NCBI GenBank assembly: GCA_004284765.1
Contig: NQJD01000020.1
Coordinates: 1 to 32,000 of the forward strand
DNA: 32,000 nucleotides
From: Candidatus Electronema aureum
Lineage (GTDB): Bacteria > Desulfobacterota > Desulfobulbia > Desulfobulbales > Desulfobulbaceae
Direction of reading: 5' to 3'
In this document: piece by piece, positions 7,013-27,115 of the stretch
Numbering within the stretch: the first letter of the stretch is position 1
How the letters are laid out: each line of letters begins with the position of its first letter
The notes under the pieces: model-generated
Databases searched by the model: none
Told to the model about the DNA's origin: nothing
The model's input: only the letters and a program-made list of their open reading frames with translations
Made by a program: the position numbers and the translations under genes

Positions 7013-8275
7013 TCAACACAGCCCGCTCACTGCCTCTCCCCGCACCAGATCATCATAGCACTCGCGCTGACGGATCACCTCAAAGCTGCTGCCGCTCACC
7101 AGCACTTCCGCCACTCTGGGCCGGGAGTTGTAGGTGGAGGACATGGAGAAGCCATAGGCCCCGCTGCTCATCACCGCTAAGAGTTCGCCCGCCTGCACCT
7201 CCGGCATCAGTCTGTCCTTAGCGAGGAAGTCGCCGCTCTCACAGATTGGGCCGACCACATCTGCCTGCTGCTTCTCTGCCGCCGCTGTTTCGCGCACCGG
7301 CAGTATCTCGTGGAACGCACCGTACAACGAAGGCCGCGCCAAGTCGTTCATGGCCGCATCAACCACAATGAACCGCTTCTCGCTGCCGCTGTTGCGCTTG
7401 GTGTATTGCACCTCGGTGACAAGTATGCCTGCATTGCCCACCAGCACCCGGCCAGGCTCCAGAATTAGGGTGCAGTCCATGCCTGCCAGTTCGGCCCGCA
7501 CTGCCGCCGCGTAATCAATCGGATGCGGCGGCTGCTCGTCGTCGTAGGGAATGCCGATGCCGCCGCCCATGTCCACGTATTTGATCTGAATGCCTTCCTG
7601 ATTGAGCTTGGCGATGAAGGCTTTCACCTTGCGCAGGGCCTCAATGAACGGCTCAATCTGGGTGAGCTGCGAGCCGATGTGGCAGCTCACACCGACGATC
7701 TCGATATGCGCCATCGTCTTGGCCCGCAGATACTCCTGCAAGGCCTCAGTCACCGGGATGCCGAACTTGTTCTTCGCCAGGCCGGTGGAGATGTAGGCGT
7801 GCGTCTTCGGGTCAACGTCCGGGTTGATGCGGAAGGCGATGCGGGCGCGGGTCTTCAGCTCCGCCGCGACCTCGTTCAGCCGGTCTAACTCCTGCGGCGA
7901 CTCGACATTGAACATCAGGATGCCCGCCTGCAAGGCCTCAGCCAGCTCGCGGCGGCTCTTGCCTACGCCAGAGTAGATGATCCGCTGCGGCTCAACCCCG
8001 GCCTTGAGCGCCCGGAACAGCTCGCCGCCGGAGACTATGTCTGCGCCGCCGCCCAGCTTGGCGAAGAGGTTGAGAATGGCGATGTTCGAGCAGGCCTTGA
8101 CCGCAAAGCAGGTCTGGTGGGCCATGCCCGCAAAGCCGGACTCGAAGGCGGTGAAATGCCGCCTGAGGGTGGCGGAGCTGTAGAGGTAGAAAGGGGTGCC
8201 GACCTGCGCGGCAATGTCCTTAATCCGCACGTCCTCGCAGCAGAGTTCGCCGTTCTGATAGGTGAAGTGGTTCAT
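7013..8275 (-). CDS. lysA: diaminopimelate decarboxylase
   Basis: Typical LysA: FYLYS, CFAVKACSN (PLP lysine), HIGSQ, DMGGGIGI, EPGR, CESGD, SSGAYG. Start moved to the ATG at 8275 (MNHFTYQNGEL..). The 44 upstream codons of the track ORF run through repeat DNA. Confidence 0.92.
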   Translation of the reverse strand: MNHFTYQNGELCCEDVRIKDIAAQVGTPFYLYSSATLRRHFTAFESGFAGMAHQTCFAVKACSNIAILNLFAKLGGGADIVSGGELFRALKAGVEPQRIIYSGVGKSRRELAEALQAGILMFNVESPQELDRLNEVAAELKTRARIAFRINPDVDPKTHAYISTGLAKNKFGIPVTEALQEYLRAKTMAHIEIVGVSCHIGSQLTQIEPFIEALRKVKAFIAKLNQEGIQIKYVDMGGGIGIPYDDEQPPHPIDYAAAVRAELAGMDCTLILEPGRVLVGNAGILVTEVQYTKRNSGSEKRFIVVDAAMNDLARPSLYGAFHEILPVRETAAAEKQQADVVGPICESGDFLAKDRLMPEVQAGELLAVMSSGAYGFSMSSTYNSRPRVAEVLVSGSSFEVIRQRECYDDLVRGEAVSGLC

Positions 8276-8315
8276 GTTGTTCCAATGTATGAAGAATATT
8301 GACAGGCGCGGTGTG

Positions 8316-8522
8316 CTGCCCGATGGACTGCGGCTGCCGCGCTGCCCGCGCCAGAGTGCAAAGATTGGTTGCACCAGAGTACAACGGTGGATACTTCTCT
8401 CGTGCAACGGAGGCTACTTCGAGAGTACAACGGATCGTTTCACGAGAGTGCAATGGCTGCTTTCACTCTCGTGCAAGTTGCGGGCGGACTATCCTTGCCG
8501 CGCTGCCCGCAGCGGAGTGAGG
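8316..8522. repeat. phase-locked 23-nt tandem array (six clear units at 8339..8476 plus degenerate flanking units; 161-bp higher-order period)
   Basis: Plus-strand units each end in GTRCAA at 8361, 8384, 8407, 8430, 8453 and 8476. Their cores are ccagagtgcaa / ccagagtacaa / ctctcgtgcaa / cgagagtacaa / cgagagtgcaa / ctctcgtgcaa. GGACT-N5-TGCCGCGCTGCCCGC occurs at 8325..8349 and 8486..8510, exactly 7 x 23 = 161 bp apart. Confidence 0.85.
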
Positions 8523-8548: not shown

Positions 8549-8627
8549 TTGTAGGGGCGATCCTTGTGATCGCCCAATGTGCCGCCATATCGCAACCATG
8601 CGGGGCGAATACAAGATTCGCCCCTAC
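8549..8627. repeat. REP/REPIN-like inverted doublet of GTAG-headed GC-rich hairpins
   Basis: Left copy: GTAG-GGGCGATC-cttgt-GATCGCCC (8551..8575). Right copy on the opposite strand: GTAG-GGGGCGAAT-cttgt-ATTCGCCCC (8602..8627). The heads point outward. The right head supplies the TAG stop of the NLR-like CDS. Confidence 0.75.
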
Positions 8628-10693
8628 CGGCCCTGCCGCGCTGCCTGCAACTGTGCTAAACCTTTGCGGCATGTCTCCAAGGAAGGATGGCCGATGACTT
8701 CCATAATCTGTACGGCCTGGCTGACATGTTCCTCTGCCGGTGCAAGGTTACATCGATCTTCGTAGGTAAGTGCTATCCACCAGCGCGTTACTGCTTCGAG
8801 GAACCTGTCGCCAATATCCAGCCATATCGCCAAGGCTTGTTCATAATACTCCAATGCTTTGGCAGGATTGCCCTGCGCACGGTAAACCACGCCAATGTTG
8901 GTCATGGCTTGTCCCTCTAATATCTTATCCCCAGCCTCCCGGCTGATATGCAGGCACTGCTCATAATATCGCAAGGCTGTCTCGTTATCGCCTTGTTCCC
9001 TATAAAGTATGCCGATATTATTCAGCGTACTGCCTTCCCCCTTCCGGTCGCCAATCTCTCGCTGTATGCTCAGGCTCTGTTGATACTGCTGCAAGGTCAG
9101 CTCATATTTGCCCTGTTGTTGGTAAATCGCGGCGATGTTGTTCAGGGTTACGCCTTCTTCCTGCCTGTCGCCCAACTCGCGGTCTATCGGTAGGCATTGC
9201 TCAAAGTAGGCAATTGCTTTCTCATGCTTCCCGCGCCGCCAGCAGGTGTAGCCTAGGGTACATAGGCACCAGCCTTCATCTTTGCGGTTGCCTGCTTGCT
9301 GGGCGGCTGTCAGGTTCATCTCTACAGCAGCCAGCTTCTCTGCCCAATGCCCCTGCCGGTCAAGGTAGATGTACGTTGCCCCGACCAAGCGGCTCACCTC
9401 CTGCCACAGCTTGCTGGCAAGGCAGCTCTCTATCAGCCGCAGGCAGTGCGCCCGTTCACCATCAAGGCGGGCATATCCCGGCAGGCCAGCCTTGCTCTGC
9501 GCCTCGCACCACTCTATATAATAGGCAGCCAGCCGCTCAAGGCTCTCCTTGCTCATCGCCAGCTCGGTGCGGGCGTAAGTATGCACCAGCGCGTGGCTTA
9601 TCTGCCAGCGTTCATCGAGCTTCTCATCCTGTTTCTTATCGTGCTTATCCAGCAGGCCGTAGTTGACTAACTCACCCAGGGCCTCACTGCTGCGCAGCTC
9701 AAGGTCATCTTGGTCTTCGTCCTCCTTGGACAACACTGCCATGACCGGCTCAAGACTGATGGACGCAAAGGCAAGAATACCCACCAACCGCAGCACTTGC
9801 ACCGCATCAGTGCTTATCTGGGCTACGCTGCGCCGCAGCAGCAAAGCTGCGTTCTCCTGCTGATGCGCCTCCTTTCCCAGCTTCCTGAAAGGCTCCTTCG
9901 CCAGCCACTTCAAGTACGTTGCTGCGCTCTCTTCCGTGCTGCTCACATAGTTGCCCGCAATGCGCAGAGCAACCGGCCAGCCACCGAGTATCTTGCAGAT
10001 GCCCACGACGCTCTCGTCATCACCCGCAACCTTGCTGTACTCCCGGAAGACCTGTGCTGCGGCCTCATCTTCCAGCGGTTTAATATTCAAACGCACACCC
10101 TGCGCATCCTTCCTGCTGCGAGTAGTGATCAGCACACCGCACGAGCTACGCAGCCGCAGCACTGCTGGGAGGTCTTTCGCCTCTTCTGTACCATCAAGGA
10201 AGAGCAAAGCCCTCTTGCCTGCGAGCACCTGCCGCACTGCGCTCTCAAGATCCGCCTTTGCCTCGATCTGAAAGGCTTCGCAAATGGCTCGCAGGGCAGT
10301 CTCCGTTTTAGGATGTCCATAGAAGCTATGGAAGACAATCCCATCCGGGAAGCGGGCTGCGTCCAGCTTACTCACTGCCTGCGCCGCCAGCGCGCTCTTG
10401 CCCATGCCGCCTGGCCCGCATACTGCTACGACCTTGCCCGGATGCAGCCTGTCGTTCAGCCAGACAAGCTCCTCCTCGCGGTGGAGAAAGCAGGGTTCAG
10501 GCGCAGGGGGCTGGCGGGGAATGGGAGGCGGCGCAGGCTGGCTGCCATAGTTGTTGATCTGACATGCTATCGCTCCATCGCCTTGCGCGATATTCTGCGT
10601 TCCGCCGTGGCTGTCAAAGCTGTTGCTCTGCACATCCCCGATGCCGGAGAGGACGTTGCCGTCGCCGTCTATATGCTGGTTGACGGTGCTCAT
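8624..10693 (-). CDS. STAND NTPase, NB-ARC domain plus C-terminal TPR array (NLR-like), with a G/N/Q-rich N-terminal motif and a Pro-rich linker
   Basis: Walker A VCGPGGMGKSALA, Walker B ALLFLDGTEE, the NB-ARC-type GGWPVALRIAG motif, then at least five TPR units (TLNNIAAIYQQQGKYELTLQQYQQSL.., STLNNIGILYREQGDNETALRYYEQCL.., AMTNIGVVYRAQGNPAKALEYYEQAL..). N-terminal 50 aa: STVNQHIDGDGNVLSGIGDVQSNSFDSHGGTQNIAQGDGAIACQINNYG, followed by QPAPPPIPRQPPAPEP. Confidence 0.85.
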   Translation of the reverse strand: MSTVNQHIDGDGNVLSGIGDVQSNSFDSHGGTQNIAQGDGAIACQINNYGSQPAPPPIPRQPPAPEPCFLHREEELVWLNDRLHPGKVVAVCGPGGMGKSALAAQAVSKLDAARFPDGIVFHSFYGHPKTETALRAICEAFQIEAKADLESAVRQVLAGKRALLFLDGTEEAKDLPAVLRLRSSCGVLITTRSRKDAQGVRLNIKPLEDEAAAQVFREYSKVAGDDESVVGICKILGGWPVALRIAGNYVSSTEESAATYLKWLAKEPFRKLGKEAHQQENAALLLRRSVAQISTDAVQVLRLVGILAFASISLEPVMAVLSKEDEDQDDLELRSSEALGELVNYGLLDKHDKKQDEKLDERWQISHALVHTYARTELAMSKESLERLAAYYIEWCEAQSKAGLPGYARLDGERAHCLRLIESCLASKLWQEVSRLVGATYIYLDRQGHWAEKLAAVEMNLTAAQQAGNRKDEGWCLCTLGYTCWRRGKHEKAIAYFEQCLPIDRELGDRQEEGVTLNNIAAIYQQQGKYELTLQQYQQSLSIQREIGDRKGEGSTLNNIGILYREQGDNETALRYYEQCLHISREAGDKILEGQAMTNIGVVYRAQGNPAKALEYYEQALAIWLDIGDRFLEAVTRWWIALTYEDRCNLAPAEEHVSQAVQIMEVIGHPSLETCRKGLAQLQAARQGR

Positions 10694-10705
10694 TTTATCT
10701 GCCTG

Positions 10706-11164
10706 CTATCTTGCAATCTCCTCGCTCCGCTCCATCTTGCCTTCACAGTTGAAACACTCTGTTTTCCCGTCCGTGCTGACTATCCACACTTCCTTGGCCC
10801 CTTTGGCAAGATACAGCTCAATCTTTTCCTCCATCTCGCCTGCGGAGTTTGACGGCGACATGATTTCAACACAGATTTCTGGGGCGCGTTTGTATGGAGT
10901 TTCATAGCTGTAGCGGGCAAAGAAATCATCCGAGGCCCACGCGACATCAGCAACTTTGACTCCCTGCGATGTCTGAATGGAGCATTGCATAATTACCTTA
11001 CCGCGCCCTTTCTTCCCTTCTTTGATCTGCGCACCGATCTCAAACTGAATATGGCCGTGGCTGTTGCTTGCAGGACTCATCAAAATCTTGCCCCACTTGT
11101 TCAGCTCAATCTTGAACGGAAGATTTTGCAGAAACGGATTACTGATCACTCCGGCCCAGTCCAT
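10706..11164 (-). CDS. Uma2-family (PD-(D/E)xK restriction-endonuclease-fold) protein
   Basis: The C-terminal half APEICVEIMSPSNSAGEMEEKIELYLAKGAKEVWIVSTDG matches the Uma2 pattern (P-D/E-h-h-h-E-h-x-S-P-S.., K..x..Y...G..E.W.V). Upstream acidic residue in VADVAWASDD. Strong AAGGAG SD 6 nt upstream of the ATG. Only 12 bp separate it from the downstream STAND gene. Confidence 0.65.
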   Translation of the reverse strand: MDWAGVISNPFLQNLPFKIELNKWGKILMSPASNSHGHIQFEIGAQIKEGKKGRGKVIMQCSIQTSQGVKVADVAWASDDFFARYSYETPYKRAPEICVEIMSPSNSAGEMEEKIELYLAKGAKEVWIVSTDGKTECFNCEGKMERSEEIAR

Positions 11165-11240: not shown

Positions 11241-12041
11241 TTACCGTAGGCTTGCCTCGGCAGATGGCTTGCTTTCGTTGGGCGGGCTGCTCTGGTCAAA
11301 GCTGCTGACCGAGTAGAAAACCTTGCTGCCTTTCGCGGGCGGGTTCTTGTCCTCGTACAGGTTGTACGGCTGCTTAATTTCGCCAAGTAGCTCCGGCTTG
11401 CCATCACCAATGCGCCGATATACCTTATGCCCGACTAAGTCCTTGTCCTTGCCTGCGTCCCAGAACACCTTGACTGAGGAAGCAGTGCGGGCAGCAGTGA
11501 CATTGCTCGGCGGCTCCGGCGGGGTATGGTCAGCAACGGCGGCAGGGGCTGCTGCCTGTTTTGGCATGGCTGACGGCTTCTCCCAGATAAAAGAGATCAG
11601 GTTAGAGTCGTCAGACTCAGAGAGCCAGCCGCTCTTGCTCCGCAGCTTAAAGAAATACTTGCGGCCTGCTTGCATCGGAGCGTCTTCCCAGCTCCCCTGC
11701 CTGCTACCTTTGTCCGGCAGGCTGCCGCCCGCCACAGTGATTGGCGTGGTAAAGGGGATCGGACAGGTGTCGCAGTACGACTCTATCGGCACTTCTGCCC
11801 GGTAGAGCTGGAAGGAGTCAAGCTCGGTGATCTTCTCACCGGAAGCCGTGCGGTTGGGCCATGTCCAGTGAAGCACTGCCCCGTTGCTGGTCAGCTCGTA
11901 GCTGAGGTCAGTCACAGGCCGGGGAGTCATGGCCGAGGGAGCAACCGGCAGGGTCTTGTAGCCGCAGCCGGTCAAGCCGCTGGTCAGGAGGAGCAGGGCA
12001 GCCGCAAGGCCGCGAAAAACAGTCGGTGCAATCTTCATCAT
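11241..12041 (-). CDS. lipoprotein with two fibronectin-type-III-like segments
   Basis: Signal peptide plus lipobox MMKIAPTVFRGLAAALLLLTSGLTG|C. FN3-like strands VTDLSYELTSNGAVLHWTWP and PSNVTAARTASSVKVFWDAG..GHKVYRR. Its ATG overlaps the argH stop (ATGA). Confidence 0.65.
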   Translation of the reverse strand: MMKIAPTVFRGLAAALLLLTSGLTGCGYKTLPVAPSAMTPRPVTDLSYELTSNGAVLHWTWPNRTASGEKITELDSFQLYRAEVPIESYCDTCPIPFTTPITVAGGSLPDKGSRQGSWEDAPMQAGRKYFFKLRSKSGWLSESDDSNLISFIWEKPSAMPKQAAAPAAVADHTPPEPPSNVTAARTASSVKVFWDAGKDKDLVGHKVYRRIGDGKPELLGEIKQPYNLYEDKNPPAKGSKVFYSVSSFDQSSPPNESKPSAEASLR

Positions 12042-13453
12042 GCTATCCCCAGTTGTTGTTCCGCACGCGCAAGAGCCTCTGCTACTCTGGCTCCGGCGGT
12101 GCCGCCAGCAGAGACCCGGCTGTTCACCGAGCCTTCCGCAGAAAGGACTGCAAACACATCGTCATCAATCAAAGTGGAGAACTGGCGCAGCTCGGTCAGC
12201 GGCAGCTCGTCCAGCTCAAGACCGCGCTGCTGGCAGAGGGCGACGATCTCTCCCACCACCCGGTGCGCCTGACGGAAGGGTAAGTTCTTTTTCACCAAGT
12301 AATCAGCCAGATCAGTAGCGGTCATGAAGCCGCCGTGCGTGGCCTCGCGCATTCGGTCGCAGGCAAAACTGCTGTTCGCCAGCAGCTCGGCAGTGATGCT
12401 CAGACTGGCCTTGACCGTGTCGAGCGCGTCAAAGAGCTGCTCCTTGTCCTCCTGCATGTCCCGGTTGTAGGTCATGGGCAGGCCCTTCATAGTCATCAGC
12501 ATCGCCATGAGCGAGCCTGTCACCCGACCGCTCTTGCCCCGGATCAGCTCCGGGATGTCCGGGTTCTTCTTCTGCGGCATGATCGACGAGCCAGTGCAGT
12601 ATTTGTCGCCGATCTTGAGGAAGCCGAACTCCTTGGACGACCAGAGGACGAATTCCTCGGCCATCCGGCTGAGGTGGAGCTGAACGACCGTCAGGCAGAA
12701 GAGGAACTCCAAGGCAAAGTCGCGGTCAGCGGTGGTGTCCATTGAGTTAGCCGAGACAGTCGGAAAGCCTAGCTCCTTGGCCACGAATTCCCGATCTATC
12801 GGCAAGCCAGTGCCAGCTAAGGCAGCCGCGCCTAAGGGAAGCACATTCAGCCGCTTCAGGCAGTCGGCCAGCCGCTCGCGGTCTCTGCCGAACATCTCCA
12901 CATAGGCAAGCAGATGGTGCGCGAGGAGCACCGGCTGCGCCCGCTGCATGTGGGTGTAGCCCGGCATGACAGCCCCGAAGTTGGCGCGGGCTTGGCGGAC
13001 AAAGCCGCGCTGCACATCAGCCAGCAGCTGGTCTAAGCAGACGGCTTCGTCACGTAGATACAGGCGGATGTCTAAGGCCACCTGATCGTTGCGGCTGCGG
13101 GCGGTGTGCAGCTTCTCGCCTGCCGCACCAACCTTGTCAGTCAGAGCCTTTTCGATATTCATGTGAATATCTTCCAGCTCCACCCGGAACTGGAAGCGGC
13201 CTTCGCGTATCTCCTGCTCAATCTCGCTCAAACCGGCGATGATTGCATCCCGCTCGTCCGCGCTGATCAGCCCCTGCTTGGCCAGCATCTTGGCATGGGC
13301 CTTGGAACCCATGATGTCGTGCCGGTACAGCCGCCAGTCATAGCTGATGGATTCGGTGAAGCTCTCCACTGAGGCGGCGGTCTGCGCGGCAAAACGCCCG
13401 CCCCAGAGCTTGCCGGAGCACTGCTGCTTCGGGCAATGTGTCTGATCAGCCAT
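12038..13453 (-). CDS. argH: argininosuccinate lyase
   Basis: LWGGRF, SISYDWRLY..DIMGSKAHAKML, TARSRNDQVA, GYTHMQRAQP, GSSIMPQKKNPD (fumarate-lyase signature). Confidence 0.95.
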   Translation of the reverse strand: MADQTHCPKQQCSGKLWGGRFAAQTAASVESFTESISYDWRLYRHDIMGSKAHAKMLAKQGLISADERDAIIAGLSEIEQEIREGRFQFRVELEDIHMNIEKALTDKVGAAGEKLHTARSRNDQVALDIRLYLRDEAVCLDQLLADVQRGFVRQARANFGAVMPGYTHMQRAQPVLLAHHLLAYVEMFGRDRERLADCLKRLNVLPLGAAALAGTGLPIDREFVAKELGFPTVSANSMDTTADRDFALEFLFCLTVVQLHLSRMAEEFVLWSSKEFGFLKIGDKYCTGSSIMPQKKNPDIPELIRGKSGRVTGSLMAMLMTMKGLPMTYNRDMQEDKEQLFDALDTVKASLSITAELLANSSFACDRMREATHGGFMTATDLADYLVKKNLPFRQAHRVVGEIVALCQQRGLELDELPLTELRQFSTLIDDDVFAVLSAEGSVNSRVSAGGTAGARVAEALARAEQQLGIA

Positions 13454-13455
13454 TG

Positions 13456-14652
<1,197 letters not shown>

Positions 14653-14747
14653 GATGGTGTTTAGGTGGTTCAATCTACGCCACGCCGCCTGAGGGCGGGC
14701 GACACGATGATGCGCAGGAAGGCTTAAAACTGCATAGTTTATCAAGC

Positions 14748-14776
14748 AGATTAGACAGCAAGGGGTGTTCTGTCAA
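14748..14776 (-). promoter_or_regulatory. candidate sigma70 promoter facing argG (TTGACA-N17-TAATCT)
   Basis: Minus strand: TTGACA (14776..14771), 17-nt spacer gaacaccccttgctgtc, TAATCT (14753..14748). It lies between the orphan gene stop and the argG start, about 95 nt upstream of the argG ATG. Confidence 0.35.
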
Positions 14777-14854
14777 GGATTTTGCGGCGAGATATACAAC
14801 ACCACCTTGACCAATAGTCCGCCGTAGTTGATGACAGTGTGCTTGATGAAAATG

Positions 14855-15910
14855 TTACGGGTACGATGAAGAGTTGGAAGCACGACTTCCTTCAAGATGT
14901 TTTGGATCGACATCGCTGGGTATTTGAATTCGATAATCATTAATCTTGACGTTGCTGCCCCATCGATCATCTTTGTTTTCAAAAAGTTTCCAAGGAAAAA
15001 GAAACGCATCGACTACCTTCCCCTCTCCAACTGTCAGAACACGTAAGTCAAACATACAATCATTATCTGGGTGATGGTTCTTTATCGCAGAGAGAATGGC
15101 AGCAAGAGTTGGCTTGATAACTGTAGGATCAGGATTCGTAGAATACGCTCGTACTGTTTGGCAGATTGGTTGCCGTTGGCCAAGTGATGACAAGCCATGC
15201 AGTCTGGTTAAGCAGTCCAAATTATGGCGCAATGTTCTCTCATGATATTGATCATCAAGAGACCATATTCTATTGACATAATTGAGAACGCTTACAATGG
15301 TGAAAGCCAGCTTGCTCAACTCAACACGACTAATCTCGAATGGATGATTAACGCAACCACCCTTTACTCTTGAGCTTACCCGGAGGACACCATCGTTAGA
15401 TGTAAAGTGTCTGTCATGAATTATTGTTCCACGAAACGGTTCTAGAATCTTGTACAAACATATAAGCCTCTCCTTCAACCAAGGTCTTGACTCGATTATG
15501 TGGGGAAAGGTTGGTGATGGAGAGCTTTTCAGACTCTTGATCTTCTCCTCAAACCGGAACGTCTTTTTGCAACCGTTCTGTTCAAGAATCCACTCAATGA
15601 GCATATCGAGCAGCTTGAATGTCGTGATAAAAACAAGTGGTGCTCCTGCAGTTAGGAAGCCTGCTTGCCAAGGAATACCTCCTCCTATAACAAAATTCAC
15701 TTCACAATAATTGACAAAGTTGACCTCCGAGCTATCAACTGGACAGATAAATACATCAGGAATCTTGCGGAACCATGGGGTTTCAATGAATTCAGCAATG
15801 TTATAGACAGCTTCTAAAAACCACGCTTCGTACTCCGTCCGTTCATTAAGAAGACGAAGTGCAGATTTGTCATAGTGTGTCATTTTCTTGTTTCCATTCT
15901 TTTCGTGCAA
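14855..15910 (-). CDS. orphan hypothetical protein (351 aa), AT-rich, inserted between argF and argG
   Basis: Uninterrupted 351-codon ORF. TTG start with GGAGG 6 nt upstream (ggaggtgaagaTTG); an alternative ATG lies at codon 10. The protein motif EVNFV occurs twice (EVNFVNYCEVNFV), and all five codons differ at the third position (GAG GTC AAC TTT GTC vs GAA GTG AAT TTT GTT), which argues for real coding under selection. No family recognised. Confidence 0.6.
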   Translation of the reverse strand: MHEKNGNKKMTHYDKSALRLLNERTEYEAWFLEAVYNIAEFIETPWFRKIPDVFICPVDSSEVNFVNYCEVNFVIGGGIPWQAGFLTAGAPLVFITTFKLLDMLIEWILEQNGCKKTFRFEEKIKSLKSSPSPTFPHIIESRPWLKERLICLYKILEPFRGTIIHDRHFTSNDGVLRVSSRVKGGCVNHPFEISRVELSKLAFTIVSVLNYVNRIWSLDDQYHERTLRHNLDCLTRLHGLSSLGQRQPICQTVRAYSTNPDPTVIKPTLAAILSAIKNHHPDNDCMFDLRVLTVGEGKVVDAFLFPWKLFENKDDRWGSNVKINDYRIQIPSDVDPKHLEGSRASNSSSYP

Positions 15911-16086
15911 TCTTCACCTCCAGCACATATCCGCCACCCGTCCGCAATGCTGTCATGTCATGGCGTGGCCAATAATGTGGCGTAATCGTTGCCCCTGATG
16001 CTTTAAAAAAACCGTTAGGCCGTACCGCCGGGTGGTGCTTGCGAAAAAGAAGTGATTGGCGGCACGGTCAGTGTGAGCGATGGAGA

Positions 16087-17007
16087 TCAGGCCACGCCGC
16101 AGATCATGGCCTCCAGAATGGCCTTGTGCATGTGCATCTTGTTCTCGGACTGATCAAACACCACGCTCTGCGGCCCTTCCAGCACCTCTTCGGTGATTTC
16201 CTCATCCCGATGCGCAGGCAGACAGTGGAGGACAACCGCATCGTTGGCCGCACGTGCAAGCAGCTCGGCGTTGAGCTGATACGGGCGGAAAACAGCTAAC
16301 CGCTTCTCCTTCTCCTTCTCTTTGCCCATTGAAGTCCAGACATCAATGTTGATCACATCTGCCCCTTGCACTGCCTCTGCTGGGTCACGTAACAAGGTAA
16401 TCGGCTGCGAAGCAATCTTGCGGGCGGCTTGGAGAATAGCAGGAGCAGGTTCGTAGCCTTCAGGACACGCGAGAGTCAGCGGAAAGCCCAGCACGGCGGC
16501 AGCTTGTATCCATGAGTTAGCCATATTGTTGCCGTCACCCAACCAAACAATCTTCAGCTTTTTCGGATCACCCTTCTTCTCAATCACCGTCATCAAGTCG
16601 CTGAGGACTTGACAGGGGTGGTGCAGATCAGTGAGGGCGTTGATCACCGGCACTTCGGAATAACGGGCCAGTTCTTCCACCACCTGTTGGCCAAAGGTGC
16701 GCACAACCAAAGCATCGGCGTAACGACACAGCACTCGTGCCATATCTTTAAGCGGTTCGCCCCGGTCGAGCTGTGTTTCTTTTGCCTGAAGAAAGATCAC
16801 TTGGCCGCCTAATCCGTACATGGCTGCCTCAAACGACACCCTTGTGCGGGTGGAGGGCTTTTCAAACAACATGCAGATGCTTTTGCCGGCAAGCTGCTGA
16901 TGGCGGAGGCCGGAGGCAGTCTCTTTTTTCAGTGCTGCTGCCCGGTCAAGGAAGGATTGGAGCTGGGCCGGGGTAAAATCTTGTAACGCCAACAAATGGT
17001 TGCTCAT
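16087..17007 (-). CDS. argF: ornithine carbamoyltransferase
   Basis: FEKPSTRTRVSFE (carbamoyl-phosphate motif), the HPCQ motif (DLHHPCQVLSD), LGDGNNMANS, HCLPAHRDEE. Start moved to the ATG at 17007 (MSNHLLALQDF). Confidence 0.92.
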   Translation of the reverse strand: MSNHLLALQDFTPAQLQSFLDRAAALKKETASGLRHQQLAGKSICMLFEKPSTRTRVSFEAAMYGLGGQVIFLQAKETQLDRGEPLKDMARVLCRYADALVVRTFGQQVVEELARYSEVPVINALTDLHHPCQVLSDLMTVIEKKGDPKKLKIVWLGDGNNMANSWIQAAAVLGFPLTLACPEGYEPAPAILQAARKIASQPITLLRDPAEAVQGADVINIDVWTSMGKEKEKEKRLAVFRPYQLNAELLARAANDAVVLHCLPAHRDEEITEEVLEGPQSVVFDQSENKMHMHKAILEAMICGVA

Positions 17008-17217: not shown

Positions 17218-18861
17218 TTATTGCTCCAAACTACTGAGGCCTTTTTTCAGGCAAAAATAGGAGGCAAGACCGCCAATCAGGGCGATAAGCACCAAGGTGC
17301 CTATTGAGAGCAACAAAGCCAACGAATCGATCTGACCACCACGTAGCCAGAAGCGCAGCAGGCGATAATTGCCGCTGAAGCCGATGACTAACATCAGCAG
17401 TTCCATTGCCAAGCTGACGAACATGAAGAGCATCATGCCGAAACTGCCTTGCGCAGCGGTCCGGCTTTCAATCTTAAAATCAGCGTACATCGCCCCGAAA
17501 CCAAGAGCTAAGGCCAGCGCACTCCACGTAATCACTAAACTCACGCCGATAGACACCCACCACATCGGCCCGGTGATTTGTAGCAGGGCGTTAGAGGCAA
17601 TGATCAGGAAGAGGATGACCAGCGTAAAGGGGATGCAATAAAAGAGATACTTGCAAAGCAGATATTTTGGCAAAGGCAGCGGCGAAGAACGGATGGCAGC
17701 AAAGGCCATGCCTTCGGCACCGATGGAAGGATAGACGAAACGAGCTGCGAGCGAGGTTGCTAAGAAACCAGCCAAGCCGATATTGGCAAAGGCAATCAGG
17801 TTGGCGAGATATTCGGTGGGCATGGGCGAGCGGTCAAGGGGCAGGGCCTTGAAGTTGTACAAATATACCACAATCAGCGCACCGACCAGAAAGAGCTGCG
17901 ACCACTCGGCTGAATCGCGGAGAAAAAGCTTTGCCTCTTTATGAAAAATGCGGAGCAAAGGCGAGGGACGGTAGTCTTTGCCACCAAAAGTGCGCGAGCC
18001 GCCAAAGGATTCCTGCGCTTTGCTGAAACCGTCGAAGAAGAATTTTTTCATCAGCCATTCCCCGACCCAGAAAAGAATCAACGGAGTGAGCAAAAGCAAC
18101 CCAGCAGCTAACCAGTCAACCGTCTGATCTTGGAGATAGCCGCCAAGGAGTAGATTAGCCCAAGAGGGCGGCAGCAGAGCAGAGCCGGGGGTTTGGAGGT
18201 TAGAGAGGTAATCAACAAAGTCGGGGAACTTTTCCGGGTCAGCTAAATCCTCCGGCTTCAGCAGGCGGATGACCAAATAGAGCAGAATACCAAAGAGCAA
18301 CGACAGATACACCGCGATATCTTTGGTCTGCTTGGCTGGGAAGAGCCTAACCAGTAAAATCGTTGCGCCGAGACCGATGCCGCTGGCAGTCAGAGCGGTG
18401 CTGAGAACGGCAAGCAGCACAAGCAGATGATAGAACCATCCAGCGGCAAAGACCGTGCCGTAAGCGCCGAAGATCGGCAGCGAAAAAATGACCATCATCC
18501 ACGAGGTATAGAGGAACGAGGTCACAAAGCGCATACGAAAGAGCTGCTCTTCTTTGACCGGTGCGCTACACAGGATTTCATTATCCGAAGAAAGATAGAG
18601 CGACGATACTGCCGAAACCATTGATGAAAAAATCAGCATGGCGAACATAATCATCCAAGCCATCTGAAATATCTTCAAGCTGAGGATGATGCCCAGCTCG
18701 CTCTGGCTGTGGAAATAACTAATCGTCCGCAGACTGATCAAATAGAGCGCAACAAAGAGAACTGCGCCGAAGCCAAGTACAGCGGCAGTACGCAGGGAAA
18801 TCCGACTGCCTCGAAAGAAGCGGTTGCGGATGCTGAAAAGGAAGGGGCGGAAGAGAAGCAT
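17218..18861 (-). CDS. polytopic membrane protein, putative ABC-exporter permease
   Basis: 547 aa with at least 10 hydrophobic segments. The N-terminus MLLFRPFLFSIRNRFFRG.. and overall layout resemble the 'putative ABC exporter' permease family. An ABC ATPase sits two genes upstream in the same orientation. Confidence 0.7.
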   Translation of the reverse strand: MLLFRPFLFSIRNRFFRGSRISLRTAAVLGFGAVLFVALYLISLRTISYFHSQSELGIILSLKIFQMAWMIMFAMLIFSSMVSAVSSLYLSSDNEILCSAPVKEEQLFRMRFVTSFLYTSWMMVIFSLPIFGAYGTVFAAGWFYHLLVLLAVLSTALTASGIGLGATILLVRLFPAKQTKDIAVYLSLLFGILLYLVIRLLKPEDLADPEKFPDFVDYLSNLQTPGSALLPPSWANLLLGGYLQDQTVDWLAAGLLLLTPLILFWVGEWLMKKFFFDGFSKAQESFGGSRTFGGKDYRPSPLLRIFHKEAKLFLRDSAEWSQLFLVGALIVVYLYNFKALPLDRSPMPTEYLANLIAFANIGLAGFLATSLAARFVYPSIGAEGMAFAAIRSSPLPLPKYLLCKYLFYCIPFTLVILFLIIASNALLQITGPMWWVSIGVSLVITWSALALALGFGAMYADFKIESRTAAQGSFGMMLFMFVSLAMELLMLVIGFSGNYRLLRFWLRGGQIDSLALLLSIGTLVLIALIGGLASYFCLKKGLSSLEQ

Positions 18862-26996: not shown

Positions 26997-27072
<76 letters not shown>

Positions 27073-27086
27073 TCCAAACGGAGGCC

Positions 27087-27115
27087 ATAATAGCCTTGAT
27101 TTGTTCTGCTGTCAA
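27087..27115 (-). promoter_or_regulatory. near-consensus sigma70 promoter for tRNA-Ala (TTGACA-N17-TATTAT)
   Basis: Minus strand: TTGACA (27115..27110), 17-nt spacer gcagaacaaatcaaggc, TATTAT (27092..27087). 14 nt lie between the -10 and the mature tRNA 5' end. Confidence 0.5.

Follow-up and report, generated by a model that had tools for sequence, protein, structure and literature searches.

A foreign low-GC gene between argF and argG of Candidatus Electronema aureum and its large undescribed protein family with a putative HEPN-like domain

The argF-argG spacer and its insert

The stretch of DNA analysed here, referred to as the window, comprises positions 1 to 32,000 of contig NQJD01000020.1 of Candidatus Electronema aureum (assembly GCA_004284765.1). 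Its minus strand includes argF (16087-17007), coding for a 306-amino acid ornithine carbamoyltransferase, argG (13456-14652), coding for a 398-amino acid argininosuccinate synthase, and argH (12038-13453), all preceded by an ABC_tran_2 gene on the same strand (17218-18861). The window ArgF shows 98% identity to a protein of Desulfobulbus sp. F5 and 85-86% identity to those of Ca. Electronema genomes. The spacer that separates argF from argG is 1,434 bp long and includes, also on the minus strand, one additional gene, here named X (14855-15910). According to the list of open reading frames (ORFs) and the translation, X codes for 351 amino acids when read from a TTG codon at 15910 to the stop codon at 14855-14857. 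A Shine-Dalgarno sequence, GGAGG, is found 6 nt upstream of this TTG (15917-15921, minus strand). Public gene calls place the start nine codons downstream, at the ATG at 15883, giving a protein of 342 amino acids; this start agrees with the N-termini of the protein family in an alignment, and the residue numbers used below are counted from it. The public protein P0001 is 100% identical to X.

The G+C content is 0.42-0.44 over about nucleotides 14800-16000, as compared to about 0.60 in argG and 0.55 in argF. The value for X itself is 0.43, and at third codon positions (GC3) it is 0.40 versus 0.63-0.81 in eight neighbouring genes. Taking the fine G+C profile together with the native-looking flanks and the length of the spacer, the foreign low-GC segment can be placed at approximately 14710-15990, that is, about 1.3 kb. 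The ratio of nonsynonymous to synonymous substitution rates (dN/dS) of X against its nearest homologues is 0.20, which identifies X as a real, constrained gene under purifying selection and bears out the coding capacity proposed in an earlier analysis of the bare sequence, hereafter the original prediction. That proposal had drawn on a peptide repeat, EVNFV..EVNFV (residues 53-57 and 61-65, nucleotides 15689-15727, minus strand), whose two copies, as read from the sequence, use different codons. The repeat is located in a variable loop and is lineage-specific, being absent from most of the family; the predicted local distance difference test score (pLDDT) of the loop falls below 50 at residues 62-68. 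The ORF, the drop in G+C content, GGAGG, the EVNFV repeat and the 10-mer, promoter-like string and RGTIIH motif discussed below were all found where the original prediction had placed them.

Eighty-two related argG loci, 80 from metagenomes plus two designated L041 and L042 (ArgG identity 67-93%), were tested by tblastn. An argF gene is located directly upstream of argG and on the same strand in 73 of them, with spacers ranging from -1 to 371 bp (median 65), and most of the nine loci without a detected argF are on contigs that run short of upstream DNA. X was found in none of the 82. In L042, whose ArgF is 86% identical to that of the window, the order ABC_tran_2-argF-argG-argH is kept with a gap of 76 bp between argF and argG; the gap in Ca. 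Electrothrix sp. Rat3 (L041) is 117 bp. The comparison of spacings suggested in the original prediction therefore sets short, X-free spacers in the relatives against the 1,434 bp of the window.

As judged from the sequence, these results show that the short argF-argG spacer of this freshwater cable bacterium of the Ca. Electronema lineage received a piece of foreign low-GC DNA, about 1.3 kb long, with one intact gene. The earlier proposal of a horizontally acquired single-gene insert is sustained by the empty sites of the relatives, the foreign codon composition and the patchy occurrence of the family across phyla. If X were instead ancestral at this site and had been lost in the relatives, one could appeal to the rearranged state of cable-bacterium genomes and to two relatives in which argF and argG are no longer adjacent; however, none of the 73 short spacers (in loci with 67-93% ArgG identity) carries X, the GC3 of 0.40 compares with at least 0.63 in the neighbours, and the nearest homologues of X (76% and 75% identical) are found in unrelated contexts. 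The empty sites and the codon composition exclude an ancestral gene for practical purposes, and we regard it as exceedingly improbable. In the two close relatives just mentioned, L036 and L037 (ArgF 92% and 86% identical), the genes that come after argF are hypE-hypD-hypC in one case, and a sigma-54 response regulator gene together with dprA in the other; such arrangements indicate that the DNA just behind argF is often rearranged in cable bacteria.

Insert boundaries and expression of argG

X is bracketed by two plus-strand copies of the 10-mer GCCACGCCGC, a downstream one at 14679-14688 and an upstream one at 16091-16100, which are the only occurrences of this word in the 32-kb window. The original prediction took them for a short duplication, namely a 10-bp target-site duplication left by a mobile element that inserted just after argF, and the core 8-mer of the repeat, three of whose four copies in the window lie inside 1.4 kb, could be cited in the same sense. 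This part of the prediction did not hold. When evaluated with shuffles, the longest direct repeat common to both 330-nt flanks has p=0.07, which is at chance level, and other occupied sites of the family are flanked by similar chance 10-11-mers with a different word at every site, so that no repeat is common to them. The upstream copy is part of the last codons of argF. Since the argF genes of the relatives end in ...TCC TGA or ...GCC TGA, like that of the window, native DNA runs beyond this copy, probably, to judge from the sequence, as far as a T-run about 90 nt further on; the stretch after the window argF has a hairpin and a T7 run, like the hairpin and T-rich run of the L042 spacer. The downstream copy forms the 3' arm of a GC-rich hairpin in the native leader of argG, whose ATG follows about 30 nt later, and an empty site from another relative (L046) has a leader of similar layout. 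Both copies thus appear to lie in native DNA, away from the junctions. As conserved element ends and a recombinase are lacking as well, insertion with a target-site duplication is very unlikely. An empty site reconstructed by removing one copy of GCCACGCCGC together with the intervening DNA, in which argF would end in ...GCG TAG and still encode ICGVA*, was discarded: an exact scan of metagenomes gave no match, and the relatives end in CC TGA as the window does.

None of the marks of a transposon or insertion sequence (abutting direct repeats, conserved ends, a recombinase gene) was found in the 1.4-kb spacer. Inspection by eye, no dedicated attC model having been run, detected no RYYYAAC/GTTRRRY core of the kind expected of an integron cassette. 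The DNA similarity between X and the relatives nearest to it (80% and 78%) has both its limits inside the ORF, and the neighbouring genes are unrelated. The sole inverted repeat found downstream of X is an 11-nt imperfect one (14738-14748 with 14840-14850), and folding was no better than that of shuffles (z=-1.0). A terminator scan and Rfam gave nothing in the flanks of X, and aligning the flanks in the window with the spacer of L042 gave no information. The 8-mer GCCACGCC is found four times in the 32 kb versus 1.65 expected, at 14679, 15962, 16091 and 23174; three of these copies fall within 1.4 kb around the insert, one of them inverted and about 50 nt upstream of the start of X, where the G+C content rises, a clustering that was noticed post hoc.

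The short spacers of the relatives imply that argF and argG are co-transcribed, and the orientation of X, which is that of the arg genes, makes read-through possible. In addition, the low-GC segment includes the string TTGACA-N17-TAATCT (14748-14776, minus strand), which faces argG and is located 96 nt upstream of its ATG. Its -10 hexamer, TAATCT, agrees with the consensus at three of six positions, a weakness that explains why a standard promoter scan missed the site. The pattern TTGACA-N16-18-TAnnnT occurs twice in the 32 kb as opposed to 0.39 times expected. A role of the string as an argG promoter is plausible from its sequence and position, and argG and argH would then still be expressed, either by read-through or from this promoter-like site carried on the insert. 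The other occurrence of the pattern, TTGACA-N17-TATTAT (27087-27115, minus strand), is located 15 nt upstream of a tRNA-Ala(GGC) gene (26997-27072, minus strand), a position at which one expects a promoter and which suggests that such promoters are used in this organism.

The X family and its N-terminal domain

X had been described as an orphan in the original prediction, which turned out to be wrong. A word-indexed search (E<=1e-3) found 187 homologues, and an exhaustive HMMER search found at least 415 clusters at 50% identity, nearly all of them about 300-340 amino acids long and with a single architecture. Members are present in beta-, gamma- and deltaproteobacteria and Geobacter as well as in metagenome bins labelled Cyanobacteriota, Planctomycetaceae, Actinomycetota, Bacteroidia and Thermotogae, and distant ones (27% identity) are encoded by Burkholderia glumae conjugative plasmids and by a haloarchaeal plasmid. 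At most loci the G+C content of the family gene is below that of its flanks. The phage collections IMG/VR and INPHARED yielded no member: none turned up in 50,697 phage records, nor in the IMG/VR scan, which was patterned on close relatives. Every named member is annotated as hypothetical, and no precomputed Pfam domain is recorded on members, including the matches of the profile of a distant subgroup, "RNE". X had no match at E<=10 among the Pfam, NCBIfam, PADLOC and PHROGs models, searches of PDB sequences with the X protein and two profiles returned only noise (STAT3, MDM2), and no description of the family was found in the literature by accession or keyword. These data show that X belongs to a large and undescribed family of two-domain proteins, about 325 amino acids in length, which is scattered by horizontal transfer and has no conserved partner gene.

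An AlphaFold2 model of X made from a 51-sequence alignment reached a pLDDT of 88 and a predicted template modelling score (pTM) of 0.85; the pLDDT of the other AlphaFold2 model was 85. According to the models and to the matches of subgroup consensus sequences, residues 1 to about 232 (15188-15883, minus strand) form a helical, HEPN-like domain with core helices at residues 6-27, 71-102, 134-157 and 186-203, short helices at 111-131 inserted between helices 71-102 and 134-157, and a beta-hairpin following the latter. Residues from about 233 to 342 (14858-15187, minus strand) form a conserved alpha/beta domain, mostly with pLDDT >90, that includes a conserved FDL motif and may act as a sensor or regulator. 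K90, D93, R151 and H156 are the only residues without variation in 70 diverse members; D223, H229, E97, W98 and K114 are nearly invariant. K90 and D93 belong to the sequence K-L-L-D (15605-15616, minus strand) in the second core helix, which carries an FKxLDMxxEW motif that includes E97. R151 and H156 are the ends of RGTIIH (15416-15433, minus strand), an Rx4H signature and putative RNase active site at the C-terminal end of helix 134-157; both residues, with four others between them, are invariant in 51 close as well as in the 70 diverse members. In distant members the motif reads YRNxIxH (RNxIxH), which is the form classically seen in HEPN proteins.

HEPN domains have a four-helix up-down core whose third helix ends in an Rx4-6H motif, the R being followed by a polar residue (N, D or H); helix 2 often bears a conserved acidic residue, and helices 2 and 3 are frequently separated by an insert (PMC3710099). 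The invariant R151 and H156 conform to the motif. In the models, as judged by the order of secondary-structure elements alone, the family also has four core helices, its motif where the third of them ends, an acidic residue in the second, for which D93 is the candidate, and an insert that separates these two helices. Consensus sequences of subgroups matched the profile HEPN_RiboL-PSP (PF18735) with E=7e-5, 0.0016 and 0.013; these matches take in the motif region and, on the side of the profile, its C-terminal part. Pfam matches among the 70 members recur in four HEPN families, with five to HEPN_RiboL-PSP, the only family with more than two, two to DUF4145, and then matches to HEPN_Cthe2314 and HepT-like families. 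One subgroup consensus matched the PADLOC models Csx1/Csm6 and CARF_HEPN in their C-terminal, HEPN-bearing parts (E=0.006 and 0.015). Another borderline subgroup-consensus match, to the PADLOC candidate defence family PDC-M02B (E=7.5e-4, residues 45-105), covers the variable loop and the FKxLDM helix.

Several observations weigh against a HEPN assignment. The best match reached 23.2 bits, below the gathering threshold of 28.4 of PF18735, and all other HEPN matches are below threshold too. The X protein of the window itself had no profile match even at E<=10. Foldseek gave no significant match for the full X model in PDB and BFVD or for the N-terminal domain in PDB; three HEPN structures were among the non-significant matches, at ranks 27-36 with E=4-5. 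When the family was compared by hhalign to one HepT, RGTIIH was aligned on RDRLIH with a probability of only 0.2%. Finally, the residue after the R, which is N in most of the X family, is G in the clade of the window. The profile and structure searches that the original prediction had recommended thus returned weak, sub-threshold HEPN matches but no significant profile or fold. For the motif itself, which that prediction had valued little, the case became stronger than expected: R and H are invariant, the profile matches, weak as they are, are to HEPN families, and the position of RGTIIH in the models equals that of the HEPN motif.

The most serious competitor is that the family has no relation to HEPN and represents a new enzyme or binding fold. 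The Rx4H motif would then be convergent, and K90, D93, R151, H156, D223 and H229 would form another active site, for instance that of a hydrolase or a transferase with a nucleotide or a small molecule as substrate. The lack of a fold match in PDB or BFVD despite confident models, the sub-threshold status of every HEPN profile match, the additional invariant residues K90, D223 and H229 outside the HEPN signature and the G that replaces a polar residue after R in the clade of the window are all in line with such a fold. It does not account easily for the fact that weak matches from two independent libraries name several different HEPN families and, where coordinates were reported, cover the motif region, or for the agreement with the HEPN description in the order of the helices, the insert that separates the second from the third, the acidic residue in the second and the place of the motif where the third ends; we therefore consider it rather unlikely. 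The N-terminal domain is probably a HEPN-fold RNase, and the family most likely represents an undescribed, divergent HEPN architecture. This HEPN hint is the strongest functional lead. As the models are confident and the fold has no match in PDB or BFVD, the family is of structural interest, and its four to six invariant residues can be mutated directly.

The X family and HEPN RNases (PMC3710099; nearest profiles PF18735 and HEPN_Cthe2314, PF18730) share the invariant Rx4H, which has the form RN..xH in most of the X family, the position of the motif, the helix-2 acid, the insert between helices 2 and 3 and a sporadic distribution of the kind seen in conflict genes. X differs from them by its sub-threshold profile matches, the lack of a significant three-dimensional match, the RG of the window clade, the extra invariant K90, D223 and H229, and the placement of the HEPN-like domain at the N-terminus, followed by the alpha/beta domain. 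HepT, the toxin of the type VII HepT/MNT toxin-antitoxin systems, shares a HEPN-type Rx4H motif with X, but X is three times larger and has neither an adjacent nucleotidyltransferase gene nor any other conserved partner. The CARF-HEPN proteins Csm6 and Csx1 resemble X by the weak PADLOC matches and by joining a sensor, which in X is a proposed one, and a HEPN domain in one polypeptide; X lacks a CARF domain and a CRISPR context, and its domain order is reversed. Single-protein abortive-infection genes with HEPN domains include AbiV, AbiD/F or Abi_2, and ApeA. Like X, they are standalone genes coding for about 200-600 amino acids with a HEPN-type motif, have no obligatory partner and are found in variable regions or plasmids. 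X has no sequence match to the Abi models of PADLOC or Pfam, and the AbiV structure 9bj5 was a non-significant Foldseek match (rank 32, E=4.8).

Genomic context and possible role

All-against-all BLAST of six genes on each side of X at 29 loci revealed no conserved neighbour. Pfam scans showed no recurring NTP_transf_2 protein among the neighbours, so that X does not have the antitoxin gene of a HepT/MNT pair. In the absence of a conserved neighbour X, if it is a toxin, must restrain itself. The contexts themselves are diverse. In Pseudomonas aeruginosa and P. peli X is directly upstream of a complete Thoeris system. The near-identical island of these two species (L007/L017, 7566-13784) consists of a 100-amino acid ORF, X, and genes for ThsB(TIR), ThsA(SIR2-STALD) and TIR_2. 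It has DUF1302/DUF1329/DAO genes on one side and an MvaT gene on the other, and has the look of a defence hotspot that can be transferred. In Ca. Electrothrix sp. Rat3 (L003, 7048-17017) a 53%-identical X lies on the opposite strand in the trp cluster (trpD, X, Uma2, trpC, trpF), and genes for Tox-ART-HYD1, DUF6881, XisI, DUF4238, MNT/HepT and DUF29 are found just beyond trpD. On the B. glumae conjugative plasmid X is located between two IS5 copies, near a Dcm methyltransferase gene and a TacAT-like (DUF1778/GNAT) pair. Pfam scans of the neighbours at other loci identified PhdYefM, YoeB and PIN proteins alongside many plain metabolic genes. Delftia has X alone, between genes for a TonB-dependent receptor and a LysR regulator.

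A defence or addiction role, as considered in the original prediction, is in part favoured by these contexts, with one Thoeris island and some toxin-antitoxin neighbours, and in part not, since many loci have housekeeping neighbours only, Delftia among them. The association with defence islands is modest, which is a point against such a role. X also belongs to no PADLOC 2.0 defence family at E<=10, weak matches having been obtained only with distant members or consensus sequences. By analogy with other HEPN enzymes X would be a metal-independent RNase, probably dimeric. Its N-terminal domain would be a divergent HEPN of four core helices, with Rx4H ending the third and the invariant acidic residue in the second, and the C-terminal alpha/beta domain would keep the RNase switched off until it is released by a trigger, for instance phage infection or stress. 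Once triggered, X would act as a self-contained toxin in abortive-infection-type defence or addiction.

An HEPN-like protein could also have an accessory role unrelated to conflict (RNA processing, regulation or nucleotide binding) and merely happen to be mobile. The many loci without a defence or toxin-antitoxin neighbour and the lack of an antitoxin or partner gene would fit such a role, and some HEPN domains are non-catalytic binders (PMC3710099). The strict invariance of R and H, a feature of the aligned sequences, argues for catalysis instead, and the extremely patchy, strain-specific distribution (X is in none of the 80 related arg loci from metagenomes), the foreign composition, the Thoeris and toxin-antitoxin neighbours and the copy on a conjugative plasmid all speak for conflict; we hold an accessory role to be quite unlikely. 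The chances that X is a self-contained conflict gene, for abortive-infection-type defence or for addiction, appear to us evenly balanced. Such a role would fit an intact, constrained gene that is strain-specific and scattered by horizontal transfer, has an RNase-type motif, occasionally lies in defence or toxin-antitoxin islands and is missing from the phage collections. More tentatively, and with clearly less confidence, the family could be an unrecognised, widespread single-protein immune sensor-effector that combines a divergent HEPN RNase with a new alpha/beta trigger-sensing domain and moves as a bare gene. If so, it would be able to lodge in core biosynthetic operons (arg here, trp in Electrothrix), a kind of defence that island-based screens tend to miss; with many copies outside defence islands and in housekeeping operons, guilt-by-association screens would overlook the family. 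As an active HEPN toxin or defence gene, X would add a new, compact, partner-less architecture to the superfamily of Cas13, Csm6, RNase L and the Abi genes.

The conserved argF-argG-argH-orf266-lysA cluster of cable bacteria tolerates strain-specific insertions, two of which are found in this window. The gene orf266 (11244-12041) is conserved behind argH in the relatives, and lysA is located at 7016-8407. Between them the window has, on the minus strand (8627-11164), a Uma2-family gene (10709-11164) and a gene for a STAND NTPase of 689 amino acids with NB-ARC/NACHT-TPR organization (8627-10693). This pair was found in none of the related loci that were fetched, and those with enough downstream DNA (L042 and others) run from the orf266 homologue to lysA, so that sequence comparison makes the pair, after X, the second insertion into this conserved cluster that is specific to the strain. 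The STAND NTPase could be an Avs-like defence gene. In Ca. Electrothrix sp. Rat3 the argG-argH junction (L041, 6263-8302) includes a gene for a 562-amino acid AAA-ATPase_like/PDDEXK_9 protein and a 90-amino acid ORF, an example from a different cable bacterium of an occupied arg-cluster junction other than argF-argG.

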